Shown here: positions 9,117-19,431 of the stretch, in pieces | Numbering within the stretch: position 1 is the stretch's first letter | Layout of the letters: each line of letters opens with the position of its first letter | DNA from: Methanomassiliicoccaceae archaeon | Lineage (GTDB): Archaea > Thermoplasmatota > Thermoplasmata > Methanomassiliicoccales > Methanomassiliicoccaceae | Length of the DNA: 64,000 bases | Assembly (NCBI GenBank): GCA_040776945.1 | Contig: JAXGZN010000002.1 | Coordinates: forward strand, 352,001-416,000 | Direction: 5' to 3' | Program-made: the position numbers and the translations under genes | Notes under the pieces: model-generated | Database searches by the model: none | The model's input: the letters and a program-made list of their open reading frames with translations, nothing else | Told to the model about the DNA's origin: nothing

Positions 9117-10499
9117 CTACGGCAGGTCCAGCCCCAGTAGCCTGAGGGTGTCGCACGCCGAGTCGTAGATCTTTAGGTGCTCCTTGGTCGGGAGCACGGT
9201 CTTCACGTTGTAGCACTCCTGGAACGTTCTTCCCTGGGGGGCGGTGAGATAGCGCCGCTCATAGCCGCGGACGATCTTGTGGACCATCCTGTTCACCTCG
9301 TCCACGCTCATGCCCGCCGCCAGGGTGGCGACCTCGCCGAGCATGCGCGCCTCCATTCCCGTGGTGTAGTCCTCCAGCACGCCCTTGGCGGACGCGCAGC
9401 CCGATAAAAGCTCTCGCCCGCTGGCGGTGTCCAGGAGCGCCTGGGCGGCGATCTCGTGCAGGCACATCTCGGTGCACGGGCCGGAGATGGTGTAGAACTG
9501 GTTAGCGATCAGCAGGTCCGTGTTCGCGTCGATCGCGGCGGCAGAGTGGCCGGCGACCTGCAGCGTCTCCCGTGAGGTGGTCATACCCCAGCGTATGTGT
9601 ATGGGGCCAGATAGGTGATAGCTGGCGTTGAGCAGGGTGAACGAGGCCAAGGTGGTCGCCACGTCGCAGATGGCCGTCTCCTCGATTCCGCCTATGTAGC
9701 CGCCGAGGATCGGCATCTGCTCAACCATGATAACGTTCCCGTTGTGGAGCCAGCCGGAGATCATCACCAGGCTCATGTTGTCGATCTTCAGCTCGTTGAG
9801 CTGAGACACCTCGTGGCTGTCGGTCGGCTTCATGCCGTCCTTGCCATCACAAGCGAGACGCCCCGCTGCGGACAGCGGTGTCTCAGGTCCCTATATGGCC
9901 ATGTATGGTCGTCCGGCCCGGTTGCACGCTTCCCGCACCGCCCTTATCTCGGCGAGCGTGGCCTTGATCTCGAACGGCGTGTTGGTGCTCGACGGGATCC
10001 CCCCGACCGTGGCCATGACTCCGTTGACAAGGGTGTCCACGACCGGCTCCTGGGCGTAGCTCTGCATCATTGGCACGAACACGTCCTCGGAGACCGTGGC
10101 CCCGGTCGGCCCGCCCTGGATGACCGGCTTCTTCGGAGCATTGGCCCGGCGGGGCTCCAGGACCACCTTCTCCCCGTACTCTCCCAGCTGTATGCGCTTG
10201 GGAGCCCCTCTGATTCCCGCCTTGACCTCGTCCTCTGTGACCCTTATGACGCGCTGGGTATCGACGTTGAGGATGCCGACCGATACCAGCATCTCCATTC
10301 CCGCCTGGAACAGCCTCTTCTTCAGGTCAGGGTCCACCGGGATGAACTTATCTCCAAAGTCCAGCTGGTACTTCTCTTTGAGTTCCGCCGCGGCGTCGGG
10401 CACGGTCTTGTTGTCCCATACGTTCTCGGTGGTCATGGGACCCCGCTCCGAGCGCAGGTAGGTCTCATAGACGGTCAATGCCTTCTCGATCGACGCCAA
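9117..10499 (-). CDS. mtmB: monomethylamine:corrinoid methyltransferase, Pyl-containing, divergent second copy
   Basis: TTG start after GGAGAG; in-frame TAG at 9891-9893 (codon 203) in RPYMAI-O-GPE; frame continues to give 460 aa; terminal stop is also TAG. Confidence 0.93.
9855..9884 (-). promoter_or_regulatory. PYLIS-like hairpin 6 nt downstream of the Pyl codon
   Basis: GAGAC-A-CCGCUG-UCCG-CAGCGG-GGC-GUCUC, identical to the copy in the other mtmB. Confidence 0.5.
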
Positions 10500-10519
10500 A
10501 GTTGCTCTCTCCAATGCTC

Positions 10520-11161
10520 TCACATCATCAGCGCGTTGACCCTCTGGACCACCATGGACCCGCACTCACAGTACGCGTCACCGCCGATGTTCTCCACCCA
10601 CTTGCTGGTGCAGCAGGCGCCACCGAATATGGTCTTAACATTGAAAAGTTTTTCTTCCTTGAGACGCTCGATGATCTTCCTCTGGCCGACTAGGGTGGTG
10701 GTCATGAGCGCCGAGGCTCCGACGATGCTGGCGTTCATCTCCTTCGCCGCCTGGGTGAACAGGTGAGGGGGAACGTCCTTTCCTAAGTCATATACCAGGA
10801 ACCCGGCGCTCCTAAGGAACGCGGACACAACGTGCTTCCCGATCTCATGTATGTCCCCCTCCACGGTCCCTATGACCACCACGCCCTTGGACGGGATTTT
10901 CTCCTCGCCCATATGCCTCTCGTAGATGTTGATGGCCTGGGACATCGCCTGGGACGCGGCCAGGACCTGGGGCAAGAACATCCTGCCCTCGTTGAACATG
11001 TCGCTTATCTCCGCCATGCCCGCGCCGAGCCCCTTCTCGATGGCTTCCGCCGGACTGATGCCCATCCGCACCGCCTCCGTGGCGGCAGACACAGCCAACT
11101 TCTTATCGTATCTCATCACTGCCTCTTTCAATAAGGCCAGTATCTCGTCCTTGCTTCTCAA
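10520..11161 (-). CDS. mtmC: methylamine corrinoid protein (second copy)
   Basis: B12 cap FLPQVLAAS, GDIHEIGK (DxHxxG), GASALMTTT, IFGGA; TTG start after GGAGGA; directly upstream of mtmB. Confidence 0.9.
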   Translation of the reverse strand: MRSKDEILALLKEAVMRYDKKLAVSAATEAVRMGISPAEAIEKGLGAGMAEISDMFNEGRMFLPQVLAASQAMSQAINIYERHMGEEKIPSKGVVVIGTVEGDIHEIGKHVVSAFLRSAGFLVYDLGKDVPPHLFTQAAKEMNASIVGASALMTTTLVGQRKIIERLKEEKLFNVKTIFGGACCTSKWVENIGGDAYCECGSMVVQRVNALMM

Positions 11162-11338
11162 ACTATCTCCTCCCACACTCCGTTCCCACCGTTCCCTCCA
11201 AACGATAATCGCGAAGTCCCACTCAGTGTTTCGTGATTGTTAAGATATGCACCTGTAAGTACAGAATGATTTCGGGAAGAAGAGAGCAAGACTCCGCCGG
11301 GACTCCGGCTACAGCATGGCCTGCAGGGGCGCCTCATA

Positions 11339-12976
11339 TCACGCCTCTCCGCTCTCACCGGCCCTAAGTATCTTGATCTTCATCACATGCTCCGGGCATA
11401 CCAGCTCGCAGCGCTTGCACGCCGTCCCCAAGCATAGGTCGGACCGGACCCTGACGCGGGGCACATCGCCGTCGACGATGACCAGGGCCTTCTCGGGGCA
11501 GGACGCCTCGCACTTGCGGCACAGGATGCATCCATCGAGCTTTCCGGTGAGCACGGTACCCGGGTCCCGGAGCACGGTGATCCCCAGCTCCCCGAGGTCG
11601 GGGATGTCCCGGCTGACCTTCCTCTCGACCATGGCCTCCACCGGCTCAAGCCGCAGATGCGGCAGCGAATAGATGTCCAGCATGTCATTGTACGACGCCA
11701 TCGGCATGCCGTAGGACCACAGGGAAAGCTCGATGGAGTAGAGGTTCTTGAAGGTCTCCGAGGTCGCGAACATGCAGTGGGTCGCCCGGAGCTTCTTCGC
11801 GAACTCTCTCAGCTCGTCCAGGTCCTTTCTCCCGGTGGTGATGTCGCGGGCCATGGCCAGGGATGTGTTCCCATACTGAATTATCCTGGTCGAGCCCGGC
11901 GACACCATCCCCACCCGCTGGGCCTTCCCGGCGTCGACGTACAGCCCGGACGCGCCGGACATGAACGAGGTCGGCACGTCGTCCACCCATATGCCCGCTT
12001 CCCTCATCAGCGTGAGGTAGCCGGAGCGCAGGGCGCCGATGGCCTTCCCTGCCTCGGCCACGTCCCCCTCGGTGATGAAAACGCCGTCCTGCAGATGCAC
12101 CCTTGCGTCCGGCGTGGTGATGCGGGGCAGCCGGACGAGCCCGCTCCGCAATCCGCAGTCCAGGGCCGCCACCACCCCGGTACCGGTGATGCCCTTGGCC
12201 CGGCTGTGCATCTCCCCTCTCGCCTTCAGACCTCCGTTCTCCGGTGCGATCACGTCGCCCCGCCTAGCCTCGTAACCCTCGTCGAGGACCCAGCACTCCC
12301 AGCCGTCCTCGGTGATGTTGGCGTCCGAAATCGTCCCCGGAGCGGCTAGCATGCCCATCTCGATTTGCTGCCCCTCCAGAGCCGGCCCGGCGGCGGCCGA
12401 GCCCGAATAGATCTCGCCGTCCTTGATCAGCGCCATCTCCGCGTTGGTGCCATAGTCGATGACCAGGCACGGCTCCTCCTGCTCCAACGCCCCAGTCATG
12501 AGCAGCATCGCCAGAGCGTCCGCTCCGATCTCGTGCCCGACCGCCGGAGGTATGATCACCGAGGCGTCGCCTATCAGCCCCAGGCCGAGCTCGGCGGCGC
12601 CCACGATATCACCGTCCCTCTTAGGAGGGACGACCTTGAGCGTCTCTAGCATCCGCTTTCCGGCGTACGCCAGGTCACGGATCTCTATCTTCTGGAAGAG
12701 CGAGAGCTGGAACGGGTTCCCGCATACCCCTAAGGTGGTGACCTTTCCCAGATCGACCTTCAGGAGAGGGAACAGCCTGGAGACCGTATCGATGATGAGC
12801 CGGTTCGCCTCGTCCTCGCCCGCGTCAATGGCGAAGTTGATGTGGTCGATGACGTTCGAGCCGGGAATGGGATGCCTCGAGGTTATGGCGGTGGAGATGG
12901 TCCTGCCGTCAGCTAGGTCGATGGCCTGTGCCCGGAACCCGCTGGTCCCCAGGTCGAGAGCGATCCCCAGCGGCAT
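11339..12976 (-). CDS. ramA: methylamine methyltransferase corrinoid reductive activase
   Basis: IALDLGTSGFR, HPIPGSNVIDH, DYGTNAEMAL, SAAAGPALEGQ, two C-terminal ferredoxin Cys clusters; TGATG overlap with pylD. Confidence 0.93.
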   Translation of the reverse strand: MPLGIALDLGTSGFRAQAIDLADGRTISTAITSRHPIPGSNVIDHINFAIDAGEDEANRLIIDTVSRLFPLLKVDLGKVTTLGVCGNPFQLSLFQKIEIRDLAYAGKRMLETLKVVPPKRDGDIVGAAELGLGLIGDASVIIPPAVGHEIGADALAMLLMTGALEQEEPCLVIDYGTNAEMALIKDGEIYSGSAAAGPALEGQQIEMGMLAAPGTISDANITEDGWECWVLDEGYEARRGDVIAPENGGLKARGEMHSRAKGITGTGVVAALDCGLRSGLVRLPRITTPDARVHLQDGVFITEGDVAEAGKAIGALRSGYLTLMREAGIWVDDVPTSFMSGASGLYVDAGKAQRVGMVSPGSTRIIQYGNTSLAMARDITTGRKDLDELREFAKKLRATHCMFATSETFKNLYSIELSLWSYGMPMASYNDMLDIYSLPHLRLEPVEAMVERKVSRDIPDLGELGITVLRDPGTVLTGKLDGCILCRKCEASCPEKALVIVDGDVPRVRVRSDLCLGTACKRCELVCPEHVMKIKILRAGESGEA

Positions 12977-13833
12977 CAGATGGCCTCCATCCACACCGCT
13001 CTGCCCTCTAGCAGAGGGGCGCGCGGCAGGGACAGACTGGCGCTCCAAACCGCCATCACCGAAACTCCGATCTGCAGGGGATCGTGCACCAGCGTCGCCA
13101 TCTTGCGGATGCCGATCTCGTCGAAGGAGAAAGGCATCCCCGGGGACGATACCACGCATCCTTGCTGGACCCACTCCCCTGGTATCCTAGCCGGTGAAGC
13201 GTTCAATATGAGGTCGTGACCCTTGACTGCCTCCATCAGGTCATCGCAGACCGTGAACTCCCTGAACTTCGATCTCAGGGCTTCCGCCTTGGAGCGATCG
13301 ACGTCGACCACCGTGACCTTCGCGCCATTCCTCGCCAGCAGCTCGGCCGAACAGCTCCCGACCCGTCCAGCGCCGATCAGCAGGACGTCCCTGCCTCTCA
13401 GGCCGCCGGCGGCCTCCCGCAGGGCGGTGAAGTAGCCAAGAGCGGTGGACCTGATGTTGTTGACGGCCCGCCGGGCCCGGCAATTGATCGCCAGGAACTC
13501 GTTGTCGTCGGCCATGAAGATGAGGTCGGCCCCGGACCCCAGCGCCTCGCCGAGGCCGGCAACGTCGGTCTCCTCGGTGACATATGCCTTCGGCCCAAGG
13601 TGCTCGACGATGGCGCAGACCGATTCCGAGAAGCCCGCGGTCGCGCCGAGGCCAGCGGTGACAGGGACGCACGCGGCCGTAAGGCCCTCCATGTCCAGTT
13701 CGTGGAGGTCTATCCCCACGGAGGTGTAGGCAAGCTCCTTCATGGTCATTCCCAGGGCCCTGGCGAGGGACGAGTCCCGCCCCTGTGAGGAGGATGGCAC
13801 GTCCCTGATCATCTCCGGCGTAAGTCTGGTCAT
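12976..13833 (-). CDS. pylD: pyrrolysine synthase (3-methylornithyl-N6-lysine dehydrogenase)
   Basis: MTRLTP, VPVTAGLG...GFS, FMADD, GAGRVG Rossmann motif, HDPLQIGV; operon position. Confidence 0.95.
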   Translation of the reverse strand: MTRLTPEMIRDVPSSSQGRDSSLARALGMTMKELAYTSVGIDLHELDMEGLTAACVPVTAGLGATAGFSESVCAIVEHLGPKAYVTEETDVAGLGEALGSGADLIFMADDNEFLAINCRARRAVNNIRSTALGYFTALREAAGGLRGRDVLLIGAGRVGSCSAELLARNGAKVTVVDVDRSKAEALRSKFREFTVCDDLMEAVKGHDLILNASPARIPGEWVQQGCVVSSPGMPFSFDEIGIRKMATLVHDPLQIGVSVMAVWSASLSLPRAPLLEGRAVWMEAI

Positions 13834-14987
13834 CAGATAACCTCCTCTGAACCCTCGAGACCCTCGGCGCGCGCGATCTCCCGGATGCACCTGGTCCTCT
13901 TCTCCCTGACGAGCTCAGAAGTGCTGCCGGAGAACATCAGCGTCCCCCTCCAGCTCCTTGCTCCGGGCCTGTGATCGGTCATCGCGTCATCAGCGCCGAA
14001 AAGGCCAGGAGCTATCCTGGGGGATCGGACCTCGGCGAACCCCCTCTCTCCGCACGACCGCATGCGGCCATCGTCGGCGGCGATGTGCTCGTAGACCGAC
14101 GCGCCCTGCCTGACGGGGCCGGCATCCTCCAAGCGGCCATGGACCAGCGCTCCCACCAGCCGCTCCAGGAGATTGACTCCGGTAGCGTGGTATACCGCCG
14201 CGGGGGTCTGGCTGGGGATCCGCGCGTCGATCTCCAGCACCTTTGGGACGCCGCCGCACACGATGGCCTCAACGTCCATGATGCCCCGGAGCCCCATCCC
14301 TTCCGCGATCTTCCTCGCGATGCCGGCGAAGGCAGCCTCGACCGAAGGTTCCAGCCCCTCAGGGGGGCAGCGGACCATGCGGCAGTCGTACCCTGCGTCC
14401 AGAACAACCTCGGTGATCACCATGGGCACCGCCCGAGCTCCGTCCCCGATGACCTCGATGGAGATGTTCGGCCCTTCCACGAACTCCTGGACTATGGGCT
14501 CCTCACCCAGCGCCCTGACCGCCTCAATGCCCATCTCCAGCTCCTCCGGCCCGCTCGCCTTCGCCACCCCTACGCTCCCGCTCTGCCCGGAGGGCTTCAC
14601 CACCACGGGGAAGCCGCAGTTCGGCCAGGGTGACGGAACAGGGACCCCCATCCGCTCGAACAGCTGATTGGAGTGCAGCTTGGACGACGAGATCTCGTAG
14701 GCCCTCATATCGAAGAGAAGGGGCGTTTCCAGCTCTCGGAACATATCGCTCAGGCATATGAGCGCAGCGTAGTTTTCGTTGGCCGGGAGGACGGCATCGC
14801 AATCCTCCAGGACCTTGGCCGCCCGTCCGCGTTCCAAGGTCACGTCCAGAACGACAGCCTCGTCCGCCAGCGACAGAGCGGGGGCGTCCGTTCGGCGGTC
14901 CACCACGAGGGTCTCATAGCCCGCCTTCCGGGCCAGATAGGCGGCTTCCATCCCCTGCAGGGCCCCTCCCACGATGCCAAGCTTCAT
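13833..14987 (-). CDS. pylC: 3-methylornithine--L-lysine ligase (ATP-grasp)
   Basis: IVGGALQGMEAAYLA.KAG, PANEN, KPS..SGS.GV, LEIDARIPSQTP. Confidence 0.95.
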   Translation of the reverse strand: MKLGIVGGALQGMEAAYLARKAGYETLVVDRRTDAPALSLADEAVVLDVTLERGRAAKVLEDCDAVLPANENYAALICLSDMFRELETPLLFDMRAYEISSSKLHSNQLFERMGVPVPSPWPNCGFPVVVKPSGQSGSVGVAKASGPEELEMGIEAVRALGEEPIVQEFVEGPNISIEVIGDGARAVPMVITEVVLDAGYDCRMVRCPPEGLEPSVEAAFAGIARKIAEGMGLRGIMDVEAIVCGGVPKVLEIDARIPSQTPAAVYHATGVNLLERLVGALVHGRLEDAGPVRQGASVYEHIAADDGRMRSCGERGFAEVRSPRIAPGLFGADDAMTDHRPGARSWRGTLMFSGSTSELVREKRTRCIREIARAEGLEGSEEVI

Positions 14988-16087
14988 GTCCTGACCCCCC
15001 TGTCCGCGGCCTTCCAGTTCTCTACCAGCGACGAGTAGGCGGAAGGCATCGCCATCCTGAGACCCAAGCCGTCCAGGATCTCCTCTACCTGAGGGACCGT
15101 CCGTCCGCCGGCCTCGATATCTAGGTCATGCTGCGCCACCCCGGCCAGACCGTGGCTGGGAGGTATTATCGAAGTGATGACATTGGCCCCCGCCACCAGC
15201 CTGGACCGTAGGCCGCCGATCCCCTCAACGTCCAGGCTCGCCGGTATCAGCCGGTCGGGGTACATCAACCTCATTATCGCTATGGCTGTCAGCTCATCTC
15301 GGAACAGGGCATGGTCGCGCTCGGCCATGGGCGTATTGCTCTGGGGAACGAACCCCATCGCCCTCACCTGCCGGACGCCCAGCTCGCCCATGATCTGGAC
15401 CGATCTTGCTCGATCGGCCGCGGTCTCCCCCACGCCGACCATGATCCCCTCCTCGGCCAGCATCCCGGAGTTCATCGCCCATTTCTTCTGGGCGAGCCTC
15501 GTGTCATAATCCTGCCCCGGCCGGAGGAAGGAGAACAGGGCGCGGTTATGTGTTTCCTGGTAGCAGGCGAACCAGTCCCCTCCGGCCTGCCTGAGCCTGG
15601 GGAACACCTCCTGGGGGACAACGCCCGGAGAGACCATCAGGGGAACCTCGACCGCATCGTTCACCCTCTGCACAAGGTCCACGAGATTGGAGCAATCGCC
15701 CCCCTGGTGCATATGAGGGTCCTCCCCCATGGTGAGGTCGACCAGATGCACCCCGGAGTCCTCAAGGGCGGTGGACAGGTCAATGATCTCCTCCAGGGTC
15801 TTGCGGTACCTTACGCTATGGTGGTTCGTGCTGCGATAGAAGCAGAACGAGCAGTTGTTGCGGCAGTAGGTCGAGAAGTACACGAACCCGTAGCAGAACA
15901 CCGCACTGCCGAAGTGCCTCTCCTTGACCTCCCTGGCCGCAGCGAACAGGTCGTCCAGCAGGGTCTGGTCCTTGATCGAGAAGAGAACCTCAAGGTCCTC
16001 TGCAGACGCTTTCGACCCATTCTTCAGACCGGATATCAATTCCTGCGCGCGGCAGGCGTCCGGTGAGCTCCGCCCCCTATATGTCAA
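14984..16087 (-). CDS. pylB: methylornithine synthase (radical SAM); start uncertain
   Basis: YGFVYFSTYCRNNCSFCFYR, DLTMGEDP, ACYQETHN, IPASLDVEG, GLAGVAQ; TTG at 16087 overlaps the end of pylS. Confidence 0.93.
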   Translation of the reverse strand: MTYRGRSSPDACRAQELISGLKNGSKASAEDLEVLFSIKDQTLLDDLFAAAREVKERHFGSAVFCYGFVYFSTYCRNNCSFCFYRSTNHHSVRYRKTLEEIIDLSTALEDSGVHLVDLTMGEDPHMHQGGDCSNLVDLVQRVNDAVEVPLMVSPGVVPQEVFPRLRQAGGDWFACYQETHNRALFSFLRPGQDYDTRLAQKKWAMNSGMLAEEGIMVGVGETAADRARSVQIMGELGVRQVRAMGFVPQSNTPMAERDHALFRDELTAIAIMRLMYPDRLIPASLDVEGIGGLRSRLVAGANVITSIIPPSHGLAGVAQHDLDIEAGGRTVPQVEEILDGLGLRMAMPSAYSSLVENWKAADRGVRT

Positions 16088-16904
16088 GGCGGGCCCCCCG
16101 CAAGTACATGAGGCTTCGCCCAACCTTCTTGATGTTGCTAGCTCCGGTCTTCACCATGAGCAGGCGTTCCAGTCCATAACCGGCTCCCACCCAGGCATCG
16201 GTAATCCCATGAGCGCCATCGAGCCTGTGGGGCCCACATGCCGCCGAGGCCACCTCGATCCCGTTGACTTCCACGTCCAGAGTGTCGCCGTATACCTCGG
16301 AATCGGTGGTGCACAGTTCGTAGTCCAGACCGACGGTCCTCATTATAAGGTCGATATGCGCCCTAAGGCAGGTCATGGGATCGCCTTCCGGGGCCATCTC
16401 CACCAGGTTGAGCATGGTGAACTCCTCGAGATGGTCTGAGCCGCGGCTCTCCTTCCGATAGCAGGTCCCGATCTCGAACATGCGCAGGGGCATCTTCGCC
16501 GTGCGCTTCAGATGACGCATCAAGAAATACAGGTTCGGGGCGAGCATAGGTCGGAGGCAGCGCCCCTCGTCCAGCCAGAACACCTGGTGATGAAGAGGGT
16601 GCGAATCGTCGATCCCCATCTTGGACAGCGCTCTTGAGGAGATTATGGTCGGGGTCCTGACCTCGAGGAAACCGTTGCTGATGAGAGCATGAGCGAGGAC
16701 CTCCTCCAAGTGGGCCAATCGGTCCCGCTCGGGCCGTTTCTGAACATACCTTATCTCCTTCCGGTTGGCGGCCTGGTGATGCGCAACCTCAACAGCGAAC
16801 GCCTCATCCCGTTCCTCGCTGGTCTCGAACCTCTTGATCACATCAGGGGTCCCGCCGAGCTCCCTCAGCCTCTGCTTCTGAGATGACGTCCACTCAATGG
16901 CCAT
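16077..16904 (-). CDS. pylS: pyrrolysyl-tRNA synthetase lacking the N-terminal domain (275 aa)
   Basis: SQKQRLRELG, CLRPMLAPNLY, FEIGTCYRKES, HLEEFTMLNLVE, GAGYGLERL; ends in TAG. Confidence 0.97.
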   Translation of the reverse strand: MAIEWTSSQKQRLRELGGTPDVIKRFETSEERDEAFAVEVAHHQAANRKEIRYVQKRPERDRLAHLEEVLAHALISNGFLEVRTPTIISSRALSKMGIDDSHPLHHQVFWLDEGRCLRPMLAPNLYFLMRHLKRTAKMPLRMFEIGTCYRKESRGSDHLEEFTMLNLVEMAPEGDPMTCLRAHIDLIMRTVGLDYELCTTDSEVYGDTLDVEVNGIEVASAACGPHRLDGAHGITDAWVGAGYGLERLLMVKTGASNIKKVGRSLMYLRGARLDI

Positions 16905-16946: not shown

Positions 16947-17018
16947 TGGCGAAGTGCCCGGGAGTCGAACCCGGCTGCCGCGGCTGTAGAGGCCTGGTGG
17001 TCGCCGGACCAACACTCC
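16947..17018 (-). tRNA. pylT: tRNA-Pyl (CUA anticodon, encoded CCA)
   Basis: GGAGUGU acceptor pairs with GCACUUC-G-CCA; short GGUC/GACC D-arm; bulged anticodon stem with loop CUCUACA; T-arm CCGGG-UUCGACU-CCCGG. Confidence 0.95.
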
Positions 17019-17199: not shown

Positions 17200-17400
17200 A
17201 AGAATGTGAATGATAATATAAAGACTTTTTGCCTTATCGTTGGCCATCAAAATAATACATATTTAAAATTATCTTTTTTTCCTTTTATATGGCATTAAAA
17301 TGTTATATAAAGTTTGTTACTCGATACTATTGTTTTATATACATAATTAGCAATAGGTAGGTTAGCCATTAATATTTTGAATAATGGCATATTCGGAGGA
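17200..17400. promoter_or_regulatory. AT-rich divergent promoter region between pylT and mtmC
   Basis: Sharp GC drop, several TATA-like boxes (TTATATAA, TTTTATATA), GCCATTA-N10-TAATGGC inverted repeat, GGAGGA RBS at 17395-17400. Confidence 0.65.
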
Positions 17401-17406
17401 TACAGA

Positions 17407-18045
17407 ATGAGCAACAAAGCTGAAATACTGGGACGTCTCAAGAAATCCGTAGAGACTTGGGACGTCAAGTTGGCCGAATCGGCGGCAAAAGAGGCTTTGG
17501 CGGCCGGGATCGAGCCGGGAGAGGCTGTGGAGAAGGGCCTTGGAAAGGGCATGGAGACCATCAGCAACCTGTTCGATGACGCCAAGATCTTCCTGCCCCA
17601 GGTTCTGGCCGCGTCCCAGGCCATGGAGAAGGCGCTGAAGATCTTCGAGCCGGCCATGACCAAGGGAAAGTCCGCGCTCAGGGGAACCGTGGTCATCGCC
17701 ACTGTTCTGGGCGACATCCACGAGATCGGGAAGAACGTGGTTGCGGCCATGCTGAAGGGCGCTGGATACAATGTGATCGACCTTGGCAGAGATGTAGCTC
17801 CAGAGAAGTTCGTGGAGGCGGCCAAGGAGAACAATGCCGATGTGGTAGGTGCCTCTGCGCTGATGACCACCACGGTAGTCGTTCAGAAGGACATCGTTGA
17901 AATGCTCAAGGCAGAGAAGGTCAAAGTGAAGACGATCTTCGGAGGCGCTCCTGCCAACGAGGAATGGGTCCAGAGCATCGGCGGGGACAAGTACTGCCCA
18001 TCTGGCGCCGAGGCGGTTGAGATGGTCAACGCTCTAGTGGGGTGA
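17407..18045 (+). CDS. mtmC: monomethylamine corrinoid protein
   Basis: IFLPQVLAAS, GDIHEIGK, GASALMTTT, IFGGAP; GGAGGA RBS. Confidence 0.93.
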   Translation: MSNKAEILGRLKKSVETWDVKLAESAAKEALAAGIEPGEAVEKGLGKGMETISNLFDDAKIFLPQVLAASQAMEKALKIFEPAMTKGKSALRGTVVIATVLGDIHEIGKNVVAAMLKGAGYNVIDLGRDVAPEKFVEAAKENNADVVGASALMTTTVVVQKDIVEMLKAEKVKVKTIFGGAPANEEWVQSIGGDKYCPSGAEAVEMVNALVG

Positions 18046-18051
18046 TATGAA

Positions 18052-19431
18052 ATGGCACTTGCAAGACCACTATCAGTCTTTGATGTGTACGACCGCTTCA
18101 TGAAGGGCAAGAAGGTCACCGAAGCGGAGTGGGACTACCAGATCATACCCACCAACGCGGCGGCGATGAAGAAGAAGTACAACATCAAGTTCGGCAAGGA
18201 AATGATCCCCGAGGACAAGGATCTGAAGAACCGGCTGTTCCAGGCTGGAATGGAGATGCTGGTCACCACCGGGTTCTACAACTCCGATCTCGGCCGTGTC
18301 ATGAACATAACCGAGGAAGAAATCCGGGAAGGGATTAAGAAGACCCCCACCAAGCTTCTCCTGGGAGAGTACCGTGACGCAGCCAGGTTCGAGCCCAGGC
18401 ACGGCAACGACAGGAGAAAACCGATCATCCAGGGAGGGCCGACCGGAGCGCCTGTCTCTGAGGAAGTGTTCGTCCAAGTCATGCAGAGCTACGCCCAGGA
18501 GGCTACTGTAGATACCCTGGTGAACGGCGTCATGGCCACCATCGAAGGCCACAGCGCTACCACCAACACTCCATGGGAGATCAAGGCGGAGCTCGCAGAG
18601 CTCAGGGCAGTGAGGGAGGCCAGAATAAGGGCCGGACGACCATACATGGCCATATAGGGACCTGAGACACCGCTGTCCGCAGCGGGGCGTCTCGCTACGA
18701 ACCTTCTTGGCGGGCTGAGGCCTTGTGACTCCCACGAGTGCTCGCAGCTCAATGAACTAAAGATAGACATGGCAGCCCTCAACATGCTTTCCGGATGGAT
18801 CCTCAACGGGGATACCATCATGATCGAGCAGATGCCGATCTTCGGGGGGTACTGCGGAGGGGTCGAGGAAACTGCCATCTGCGATGTGGCCACCCACCTG
18901 GCGTCGTTCACCCTGTTCAACGGGAACTTCCACCTGGACGGTCCGATCCACATCCGCTGGGGCATCACCACTTCTCGGGAGACGCTGCAGATCGCCGGCC
19001 ACGTGGCCGCCGCGGTCGATGCGAACACCGACCTGTTGATCGCCAACCAGTACTACCCCATATCGGGTCCCTGCACCGAGATGTGTCTACTCGAGACGGC
19101 CGCTCAGGCCATGGTGGACACTGCCTCCGGTCGGGAACTGCTGTCCGGGTCCGCGGCCGCCAAGGGCGTGGCCATGGACAAGACCACCGGTATGGAAGCC
19201 AGGATCATGGGCGAAGCTTCGATTGCGACCTGTGGCATGAAGATCTCCGACGTCAACGAGATACTCGAGAAGCTGGTCAGCTCCTACGAGGGCAACTACC
19301 ACAAGCCTCCTGCCGGCAAGCGCTTCCAGGAGTGCTATGACGTCAATACCGTCAAGCCCACCGACGAGTACCTGAAGGTCTACGACAACGTTGTCAAGAC
19401 CCTGAGGGACCTCGGCCTAGCGATCAAGTGA
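18052..19431 (+). CDS. mtmB: monomethylamine:corrinoid methyltransferase, Pyl at codon 202
   Basis: In-frame TAG 18655-18657 is codon 202, the canonical MtmB Pyl position; E205 and E229 retained; 459 aa; TGA stop. Confidence 0.96.
18629..18696. repeat. 68-nt exact repeat spanning the Pyl codon (inverted copy at 9852-9919); contains the hairpin at 18664-18693
   Basis: gggccggacgaccatacatggccataTAGggacctgagacaccgctgtccgcagcggggcgtctcgct is present in both mtmB genes. Confidence 0.92.

Follow-up and report, generated by a model that had tools for sequence, protein, structure and literature searches.

A UAG-terminated pylS at the head of a compact pyl operon in Methanomassiliicoccaceae, and the gauge of pyrrolysine supply that it may provide

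At the leaders of the trp and his operons, ribosome-mediated attenuation responds to the supply of charged tRNA, and prfB, the gene of release factor 2, is autoregulated through an in-frame stop in its own coding sequence by a +1 frameshift at UGA. Among organisms that decode UAG as pyrrolysine (Pyl), two studies on Methanosarcina acetivorans describe a UAG that serves as stop and as Pyl codon within one cell, a charging of tRNA-Pyl that increases on trimethylamine from about 21% to 58%, and a ribosome occupancy and dwell at UAG that follow this charging (PMC12626013, PMC13663744). The former also proposes that cells sense the efficiency of readthrough by an unknown route, and suggests that an in-frame TAG near the C-terminus of M. 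acetivorans PylB might tune Pyl synthesis (PMC12626013). According to two further sources, no cis signal for Pyl decoding is known (PMC8211752, bioRxiv 10.1101/2024.09.30.615893); in the papers covered, a stem-loop resembling PYLIS (pyrrolysine insertion sequence) is described for mtmB only, where it is inessential. It is still to be explained how Pyl users cope with one codon that carries two meanings, termination and an amino acid. Here we analyzed a 64,000-nucleotide (nt) stretch of a Methanomassiliicoccaceae archaeon (GCA_040776945.1, contig JAXGZN010000002.1, positions 352,001 to 416,000; hereafter the window), in which pylS, encoding pyrrolysyl-tRNA synthetase (PylRS), ends in TAG at its junction with the biosynthetic gene pylB.

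The locus offers two testable handles on this question. One is the UAG with which the synthetase gene ends throughout the family, at the entry to a coupled series of biosynthetic genes; the other is an AUA-UAG pair that, in just the lineages in which UAG has remained a frequent stop, marks the Pyl codons of three mutually unrelated families of enzymes. Should one of them prove to matter, no built-in control element would have been described earlier for the Pyl system, and amber suppression with the widely used PylRS/tRNA pairs could benefit. The elements are already known in kind, as translational coupling and codon-based feedback; what is new is their being built on the Pyl amber codon. The covered text of PMC3941956, PMC4153887, PMC5688252, PMC9630628, PMC13663744, PMC8211752, PMC12626013 and bioRxiv 10.1101/2024.09.30.615893, which excludes the supplements and leaves an earlier mention possible, mentions neither a TAG-ending pylS nor ATA before Pyl codons.

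The window contains the Pyl machinery, pylT, pylS and pylBCD. All relevant pyl genes lie on the minus strand in a compact chain, pylT, pylS, pylB, pylC, pylD and ramA, and no downstream start is more than a few bases away from the stop of the gene before it. The product of pylS matches NCBIfam TIGR02367 (PylS_Cterm) over residues 47-275 of 275 with 280 bits (cut-off 178), as expected for a PylRS without an N-terminal domain, and that of pylB matches TIGR03910 with 432 bits against a cut-off of 348. A first-pass annotation, made from the letters of the window alone, had reported that pylS ends in GAC ATA TAG and had proposed a Pyl-sensing switch at this point. Sequence and translation confirm the ending: the 3′ end of pylS reads CTT GAC ATA TAG, with the TAG at 16079-16077. 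The codon used for this stop is the only one that the product of the operon itself is able to convert to sense. The features of the junction and of the operon are as follows.

16947-17018, minus strand: pylT, tRNA-Pyl with anticodon CUA (ARAGORN)
16077-16904, minus strand: pylS, a PylRS of 275 amino acids without N-terminal domain, ending in TAG (open reading frame list, translation, TIGR02367)
16094-16099, minus strand: GGGGGG inside pylS, 6 nt before the TTG, the probable Shine-Dalgarno site of pylB (sequence)
16085-16087, minus strand: TTG, the most likely pylB start, overlapping the end of pylS (frame, common to loci L001-L005)
16080-16082, minus strand: ATA, the last sense codon of pylS (sequence; the same codon precedes the true Pyl codons of the window's family)
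16077-16079, minus strand: TAG ending pylS, an ambiguous codon in a carrier of tRNA-Pyl (sequence, translation)
15990-16076, minus strand: putative readthrough extension, 28 codons and TGA 15992-15990, out of frame inside pylB (translation with TAG as O)
14984-16087, minus strand: pylB, methylornithine synthase (TIGR03910)
13833-14987, minus strand: pylC, its ATG overlapping the pylB TGA (ATGA, 14987-14984; TIGR03909, sequence)
12976-13833, minus strand: pylD, its ATG overlapping the pylC TGA (TGATG, 13835-13831; TIGR03911, sequence)
11339-12976, minus strand: ramA, corrinoid reductive activase, its ATG overlapping the pylD TGA (TGATG, 12978-12974; TIGR04270, sequence)

The annotation had placed the likely pylB start at a TTG 8 nt upstream of the TAG, and a comparison of start codons in five loci supports this choice. 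The pylB frame is open from 16123 and contains in-frame TTG codons at 16123, 16087 and 16039, with no ATG or GTG ahead of the conserved part. TTG 16087-16085 precedes the T of the TAG by 8 nt, giving an 11 nt overlap of pylS and pylB. Thirty junctions, drawn from 201 searched genomes of the order, were compared. Among the five loci that comprise the window and its four closest relatives (L001-L005; pylS 68-76% identical), the TTG at -8 is the sole start common to all; it is the only ATG, GTG or TTG available for pylB in L004, and a GGAGG-type or G-only run is located 6-8 nt upstream of it in every one of them. We also considered TTG 16039, which lacks spacing behind its AGGA, costs about 7 TIGR03910 positions and is not common to the relatives. 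Because TTG 16087 is common to the five loci and follows their G runs, and because TTG 16039 cuts into the profile, the former is most likely the pylB start. Its GGGGGG is a weak ribosome-binding site, since it pairs with the 16S ribosomal RNA 3′ end of this genome (GGATCACCTCCT) by G-U wobbles only; a similar G run stands 7 nt ahead of the pylC ATG.

The overlap of the pylB start with pylS stood for the window's subclade and not for most of the window's family, in which pylB has a downstream ATG whose ribosome-binding site overlaps the TAG. In these other members, the start is an ATG (TTG in L018 and L050) at +13 to +16 nt after the TAG; over all relatives compared, the ATG is found +12 to +16 after the stop. 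In most f1-type members with the downstream start, the ribosome-binding run starts at the G of the TAG itself, as in ...ATATAGGAGGCAGCGCATG. Where the other members have this ATG, TCA, ACG, CCC or CCG is found in the subclade of the window, and the overlapping start is thus a derived state special to a subclade. In L018 (G045), the pylS TAG is in frame with pylB (TTG at +15), and readthrough would give a PylS-PylB fusion of about 640 residues.

Among described arrangements, translational coupling at ATGA and TGATG junctions is alike in that the distance between stop and start is in the range of 8-16 nt and the ribosome-binding run is in the upstream gene. Both hold for pylS and pylB, whose start is near the stop on the same strand behind a run inside the pylS 3′ end. 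The three other junctions of this operon share the coupling design, with Shine-Dalgarno-like runs ahead of pylC (GGGGGG), pylD (GAGGAGG) and ramA (GGAGG); the annotation's statement that they use TGA, as ATGA at pylB/pylC and TGATG at pylC/pylD and pylD/ramA, agrees with the sequence. The pylS junction differs in its stop, a UAG in an organism whose operon makes both the decoding tRNA and the amino acid, so that release there is conditional in principle. The parallel to prfB is that a stop codon inside the gene of a translation factor, or terminating it, would be contested by the activity under that gene's control, giving feedback with no separate regulator. The pylS junction departs from prfB in lacking a frameshift site, in opposing Pyl-tRNA to release factor, and in having the following gene as its supposed target; nothing points to a programmed frameshift, pylB having its own start at TTG 16087, and no dedicated search for a slippery sequence was made.

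The likeness to trp and his attenuation is that a ribosome at specific codons would read the supply of charged tRNA and set the expression of biosynthetic genes. However, pylS has no leader peptide, alternative hairpins or terminator: its UAG ends a full-length enzyme gene in a region without significant structure, and the action would be on translation. PYLIS-assisted insertion at mtmB shares with this locus a UAG in a Pyl decoder and the local ATA-TAG-GG context, whereas the hairpin that follows the mtmB UAG has no counterpart at pylS. The TAG in M. acetivorans PylB, likened here from its publication, is also a UAG inside the pyl gene set that has been proposed as a tuner, but it is in pylB and not pylS, belongs to another lineage and has no link to a gene junction.

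The junction might work as follows. The four junctions would form a chain of coupled genes with pylS at its head. While charged tRNA-Pyl is scarce, ribosomes finishing pylS would be released at the UAG, atop the pylB start, and could re-initiate. When it is abundant, a fraction of them would insert Pyl, continue for 28 codons in the wrong frame and be released 97 nt inside pylB, too distant for re-initiation, yielding in addition a PylRS extended by 29 residues. Pyl-tRNA would thereby lower PylB and, via coupling, PylC, PylD and RamA, in a negative feedback with a strength set by the readthrough fraction. In most relatives the same logic would apply to a pylB ATG 13-16 nt past the UAG, the UAG being within the ribosome-binding site. 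The end of pylS may thus hold a built-in gauge of pyrrolysine supply. Judged from sequence comparison, a Pyl-dependent uncoupling of pylB large enough to measure is plausible, and we assign it a probability of roughly 0.4; we read the pylS-pylB junction as translationally coupled on an ambiguous UAG just as tentatively. That this effect, together with the ATA context, was selected for that purpose is doubtful. The fullest form of the proposal, a feedback encoded in the genetic code itself, is likewise unlikely: in Methanomassiliicoccales lineages still using UAG as a stop, AUA-UAG would be a selected cis context for Pyl decoding, and the AUA-UAG of pylS a selected sensor of charged tRNA-Pyl that diverts ribosomes from the pylB start and throttles pylB-pylC-pylD-ramA.

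To place the stop of pylS among its relatives, we listed 117 full-length pylS matches and examined 72, including all 22 of the window's own family (f1); the remainder belong to the other two families of the order (f3 and f7). Stop choice is not random, as the idea of a switch presupposed: 21 of the 22 copies in f1 end in TAG, one in TGA and none in TAA. All eight f3 copies end in TGA, with no TAG or TAA, and the 42 f7 copies are divided into 38 TGA, three TAG and one TAA, so that TGA stands at pylS in 46/50 copies of these two families. The single TGA copy of f1 (L006) is from a genome whose second pyl cluster ends in TAG (L049). In f1, pylS is present in 19 of 24 genomes, and the TAG copies are spread over several branches of the gene tree, including second copies in one genome. 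In a tree of 32 PylS copies, f7 formed one clade and f1 together with one f3 genus the other, within which TAG changed to TGA twice. A scan of named records, which overlaps this survey and is not an independent count, returned TAG in all of the best nine loci (titled Methanomassiliicoccus, Methanomassiliicoccaceae or unclassified archaeal metagenome-assembled genomes) and TGA in most loci titled Methanomethylophilaceae, Methanoplasma or Methanogranum; eight bacterial pylSc genes in the same scan ended in TAG (4) or TAA (4).

A few copies deserve separate mention. Three loci in genomes assigned to f7 (L074, L078) or titled Methanomethylophilaceae (L111) have a pylS with an f1-like C-terminus (...RIDI or ...RIEI) ending in TAG, preceded by ATA in two of them, and transfer of an f1-type cluster may account for them. 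In L085 (G180), of f7, the usual TGA after ...YRIN is absent and pylS continues for 20 codons to a TAG. Two loci of Actinomycetota (L149, L152) show a similar layout of TAG, G run and pylB start, in which pylSc ends GAA TAG GGGG, followed by GTG, with a back-up stop 4 codons further on.

The second handle is the codon that precedes the UAG. Our annotation-based starting point was that the 9 nt around the pylS stop equal those around the Pyl codons of both mtmB genes, and CATATAGGG was indeed found at all three sites and nowhere else on either strand of the window. The mtmB copies, identical over 27 nt around the Pyl codon, are paralogues and count as one instance for this reason. Their features are as follows.

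18052-19431, plus strand: mtmB copy 2, Pyl codon TAG 18655-18657 in the context CAT ATA TAG GG (PF05369 match, one internal TAG)
9117-10565, minus strand: mtmB copy 1, Pyl codon TAG 9893-9891 (ATA-TAG-GG), own stop TAG 9119-9117 (CCG-TAG-GG) (PF05369, context)

The methyltransferase families of mtmB, mttB and mtbB are unrelated to one another. In f1, ATA precedes the Pyl UAG in 22/22 mtmB, 7/8 mttB and 5/5 mtbB genes, that is, 34/35 true Pyl codons, while synonymous sites next to these codons vary freely. The same holds for 8/8 mtmB genes of f3. In f7, which hardly uses TAG as a stop, ATA is found in only 4/14 mtmB and mttB genes; the preceding codon there encodes Ile, Val or Met, and ATT, GTA, GTT, GTC and ATG are used besides ATA. 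None of nine bacterial mttB genes has ATA, the residue being Gly (GGA, GGC or GGT). The ATA-TAG-G context that the annotation had noted at pylS is thus common to real Pyl codons, and ATA precedes the stop in 18/21 TAG-ending pylS copies of f1, compared with 5/326 ordinary TAG-ending open reading frames of this genome, although ATC (66%) outnumbers ATA (25%) among its Ile codons. The f1 loci with a displaced ribosome-binding run are the three copies without ATA. ATA before UAG is a regularity derived here for f1, with no established rule behind it, and the window's pylS conforms to it. As a codon pair, ATA-UAG may provide a context for Pyl decoding that is particular to these lineages.

Two other origins of the pattern were considered. 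Avoidance of CTAG might have favored ATA over ATC; however, the tetramer is only mildly under-represented (observed/expected 0.76) and C is common ahead of TAG stops (35%), and this fails to explain the pattern. ATATAG could also be taken for a TATA box, but by reasoning the transcript start about 25 nt downstream would fall inside pylB, and the motif is also present inside methyltransferase genes.

How far the TAG at pylS exceeds descent and chance depends on the background of TAG stops. In this genome, 327/1458 long open reading frames (ORFs) end in TAG (22%), roughly twice the share published for M. luminyensis, which Borrel et al. put at 11.3%, next to 1.6% in Ca. M. alvus (PMC4153887). 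Rough shares from sampled genomes, with 27-65 ORFs each, were 15% and 11% in two of f1, 16% and 18% in two of f3, and 3% in one of f7, TAG being the minority stop in these genomes. G follows the TAG in 144/327 of the TAG-ending long ORFs, and TAG with a following G at pylS is, within this one genome, no more than chance; across the relatives it is more. We counted stop changes on gene trees in up to 20 kb around 20 pyl clusters of f1. The pylS stop changed once over a tree length of 5.78. Free-standing stops changed 4 times over 4.39 (ramA), 6 times over 2.09 (mtmB) and 5 times over 6.67 (corrinoid protein gene), and the other junction stops once over 5.67 (pylB), once over 5.01 (pylC) and not at all over 5.37 (pylD). 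The pylS TAG is therefore kept far better than free-standing stops and no better than the other junction stops. The latter are forced by direct start-stop overlap (ATGA, TGATG), and the constraint on the pylS stop is softer. TAG occurs with three junction designs, a ribosome-binding site overlapping the TAG with ATG at +13 to +16, a displaced site, and a start at -8.

The consequences of readthrough were computed next to the annotation's figure of 29 added residues ending inside pylB, which they bear out. With the TAG read as Pyl, PylS gains O followed by the 28 residues GAELTGRLPRAGIDIRSEEWVESVCRGP and stops at TGA 15992-15990, 97 nt inside pylB. The 28 open codons are typical for the ORFs of this genome. 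In all 18 ATA-TAG copies of f1, the pylS frame stays open for 25-50 further codons. Synonymous shuffles of pylB reach at least 25 open codons with a probability of 0.2-0.9 per locus, against 17/17 observed for ATA-TAG loci, the 25-codon threshold having been picked after inspection of the data. On all these descriptive points the annotation was right wherever it could be checked.

The following observations weigh against a Pyl-dependent gauge. The pylB, pylC and pylD stops are as well kept as that of pylS, so conservation alone cannot single out the TAG. In f3, pylS has TGA in 8/8 copies even though the TAG shares of 16% and 18% are similar to those of f1, and one f3 genus groups with some TAG copies of f1 inside the TAG clade with moderate support (87/74), so that TAG appears to have been replaced there. 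ATA precedes TGA in four f3 copies, and since Ile is the ancestral C-terminal residue of PylS and ATA is found before these TGA stops, the ATA may be merely ancestral. Ordinary genes do not avoid ATA-TAG, which ends 5/326 TAG-ending ORFs of this genome (1.5%) compared with 15/956 for ATA-TGA (1.6%), and as a readthrough signal it therefore neither suffices nor does harm. TAG is not followed by an excess of back-up stops in this genome (median open frame 24 codons for TAG vs 26 for TGA). The non-avoidance of ATA-TAG and the lack of excess back-up stops argue that readthrough is low or harmless, and because 22% of genes end in TAG, readthrough must stay modest, which caps any feedback. The extension peptide is not a conserved homologous coding sequence, as found after recoding sites, but out-of-frame pylB of 1 to 50 codons in the relatives, the one in-frame fusion of L018 apart. 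Its open length is not above that of synonymous shuffles (Fisher combination over 11 lineage representatives, p ~0.2, a hand calculation). Two TAG-ending copies in f1 have a second stop 1-2 codons on, which would cancel the overshoot, and the third non-ATA exception has its TAG in frame with pylB. Finally, a 141-nt fold of the pylS/pylB junction shows no significant RNA structure (z = +0.44) and no PYLIS-like stem-loop at the pylS UAG.

The main rival explanation takes the TAG as an inherited ordinary stop held in place by a compact junction, with readthrough as small unselected noise, and we consider it a serious possibility that falls somewhat short of even odds. It accounts well for the geometry. 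The AG of the TAG sits in the pylB ribosome-binding site (TAGGAGG) in most relatives, most f1 loci have TAG overlapping GGAGG or GGGGG, the other families have TGA overlapping runs of the GAGGTG type, and the TAG of the window's subclade lies inside the first pylB codons. The equal conservation of stops within the operon, the TGA of f3 at a similar TAG share, the unstructured junction with its unconserved extension, and the genome-wide indifference to ATA-TAG and to back-up stops all fit it as well. Yet the constraint it relies on is soft, since most loci have no start-stop overlap and a single change from TAG to TAA would keep the stop. TAG survives in three loci whose ribosome-binding run is displaced and leaves it untouched (L018, L020, L021), and in the five whose pylB start has moved upstream to -8 (L001-L005). 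An ordinary stop also leaves aside that ATA is kept in 18/21 copies though ATC is the preferred Ile codon, and that the same ATA marks nearly all of the real Pyl codons of f1.

Two further readings keep readthrough and change its consequence. The purpose might be the protein, a tailed PylRS isoform that is less active, less stable or located elsewhere and feeds back on tRNA charging instead of pylB; the conserved TAG with its Pyl-like context and the 25-50 open codons behind every ATA-TAG copy would suit it, but the tail, being an out-of-frame reading of a variable part of pylB, is not conserved in sequence and its length does not significantly exceed shuffles, and we regard it as very improbable. 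Or the sign might be opposite, with ribosomes that pause or read through at the UAG opening the pylB initiation site and raising PylB along with Pyl-tRNA. UAG is reported as a major pause site in M. acetivorans (PMC13663744); however, the junction holds no stable structure to be opened, and a suppressor tRNA under positive feedback would carry risks with 22% TAG stops. We regard this reading as very improbable, too.

Four RNA-library runs, belonging to three studies (anaerobic digesters, bioreactors and activated sludge), gave contigs that bridge pylT, pylS and pylB at 99-100% identity and contain no variant at the pylS TAG. Such metatranscriptome contigs show presence and bridging only, and not readthrough, strand, transcript ends or expression level. 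They fit co-transcription of the three genes and fall short of proof, as RNA libraries can contain DNA.

The only Pyl genes found in this genome are the two mtmB copies, which flank the pyl operon; there was no match to mtbB or mttB. The mtmB UAG is followed about 6 nt downstream by a hairpin, GAGAC...GUCUC around a GC-rich inner stem (about 18663-18695, plus strand), at the position where a PYLIS-like element would sit. A 141-nt fold there is weakly better than shuffles (z = -1.1), and an Rfam search of the whole window at gathering thresholds returned 0 matches. In the message of mtmB copy 1, which has two in-frame TAGs, one UAG must be decoded as Pyl and the other must end translation. Among relatives, mtmB terminates in TGA in 8, TAG in 7 and TAA in 7 cases. 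Two corrinoid protein genes, at 17377-18045 on the plus strand and 10520-11176 on the minus strand, pair with the two mtmB copies and score slightly below the curated cut-off of TIGR02370 (212 and 213 bits vs 215).

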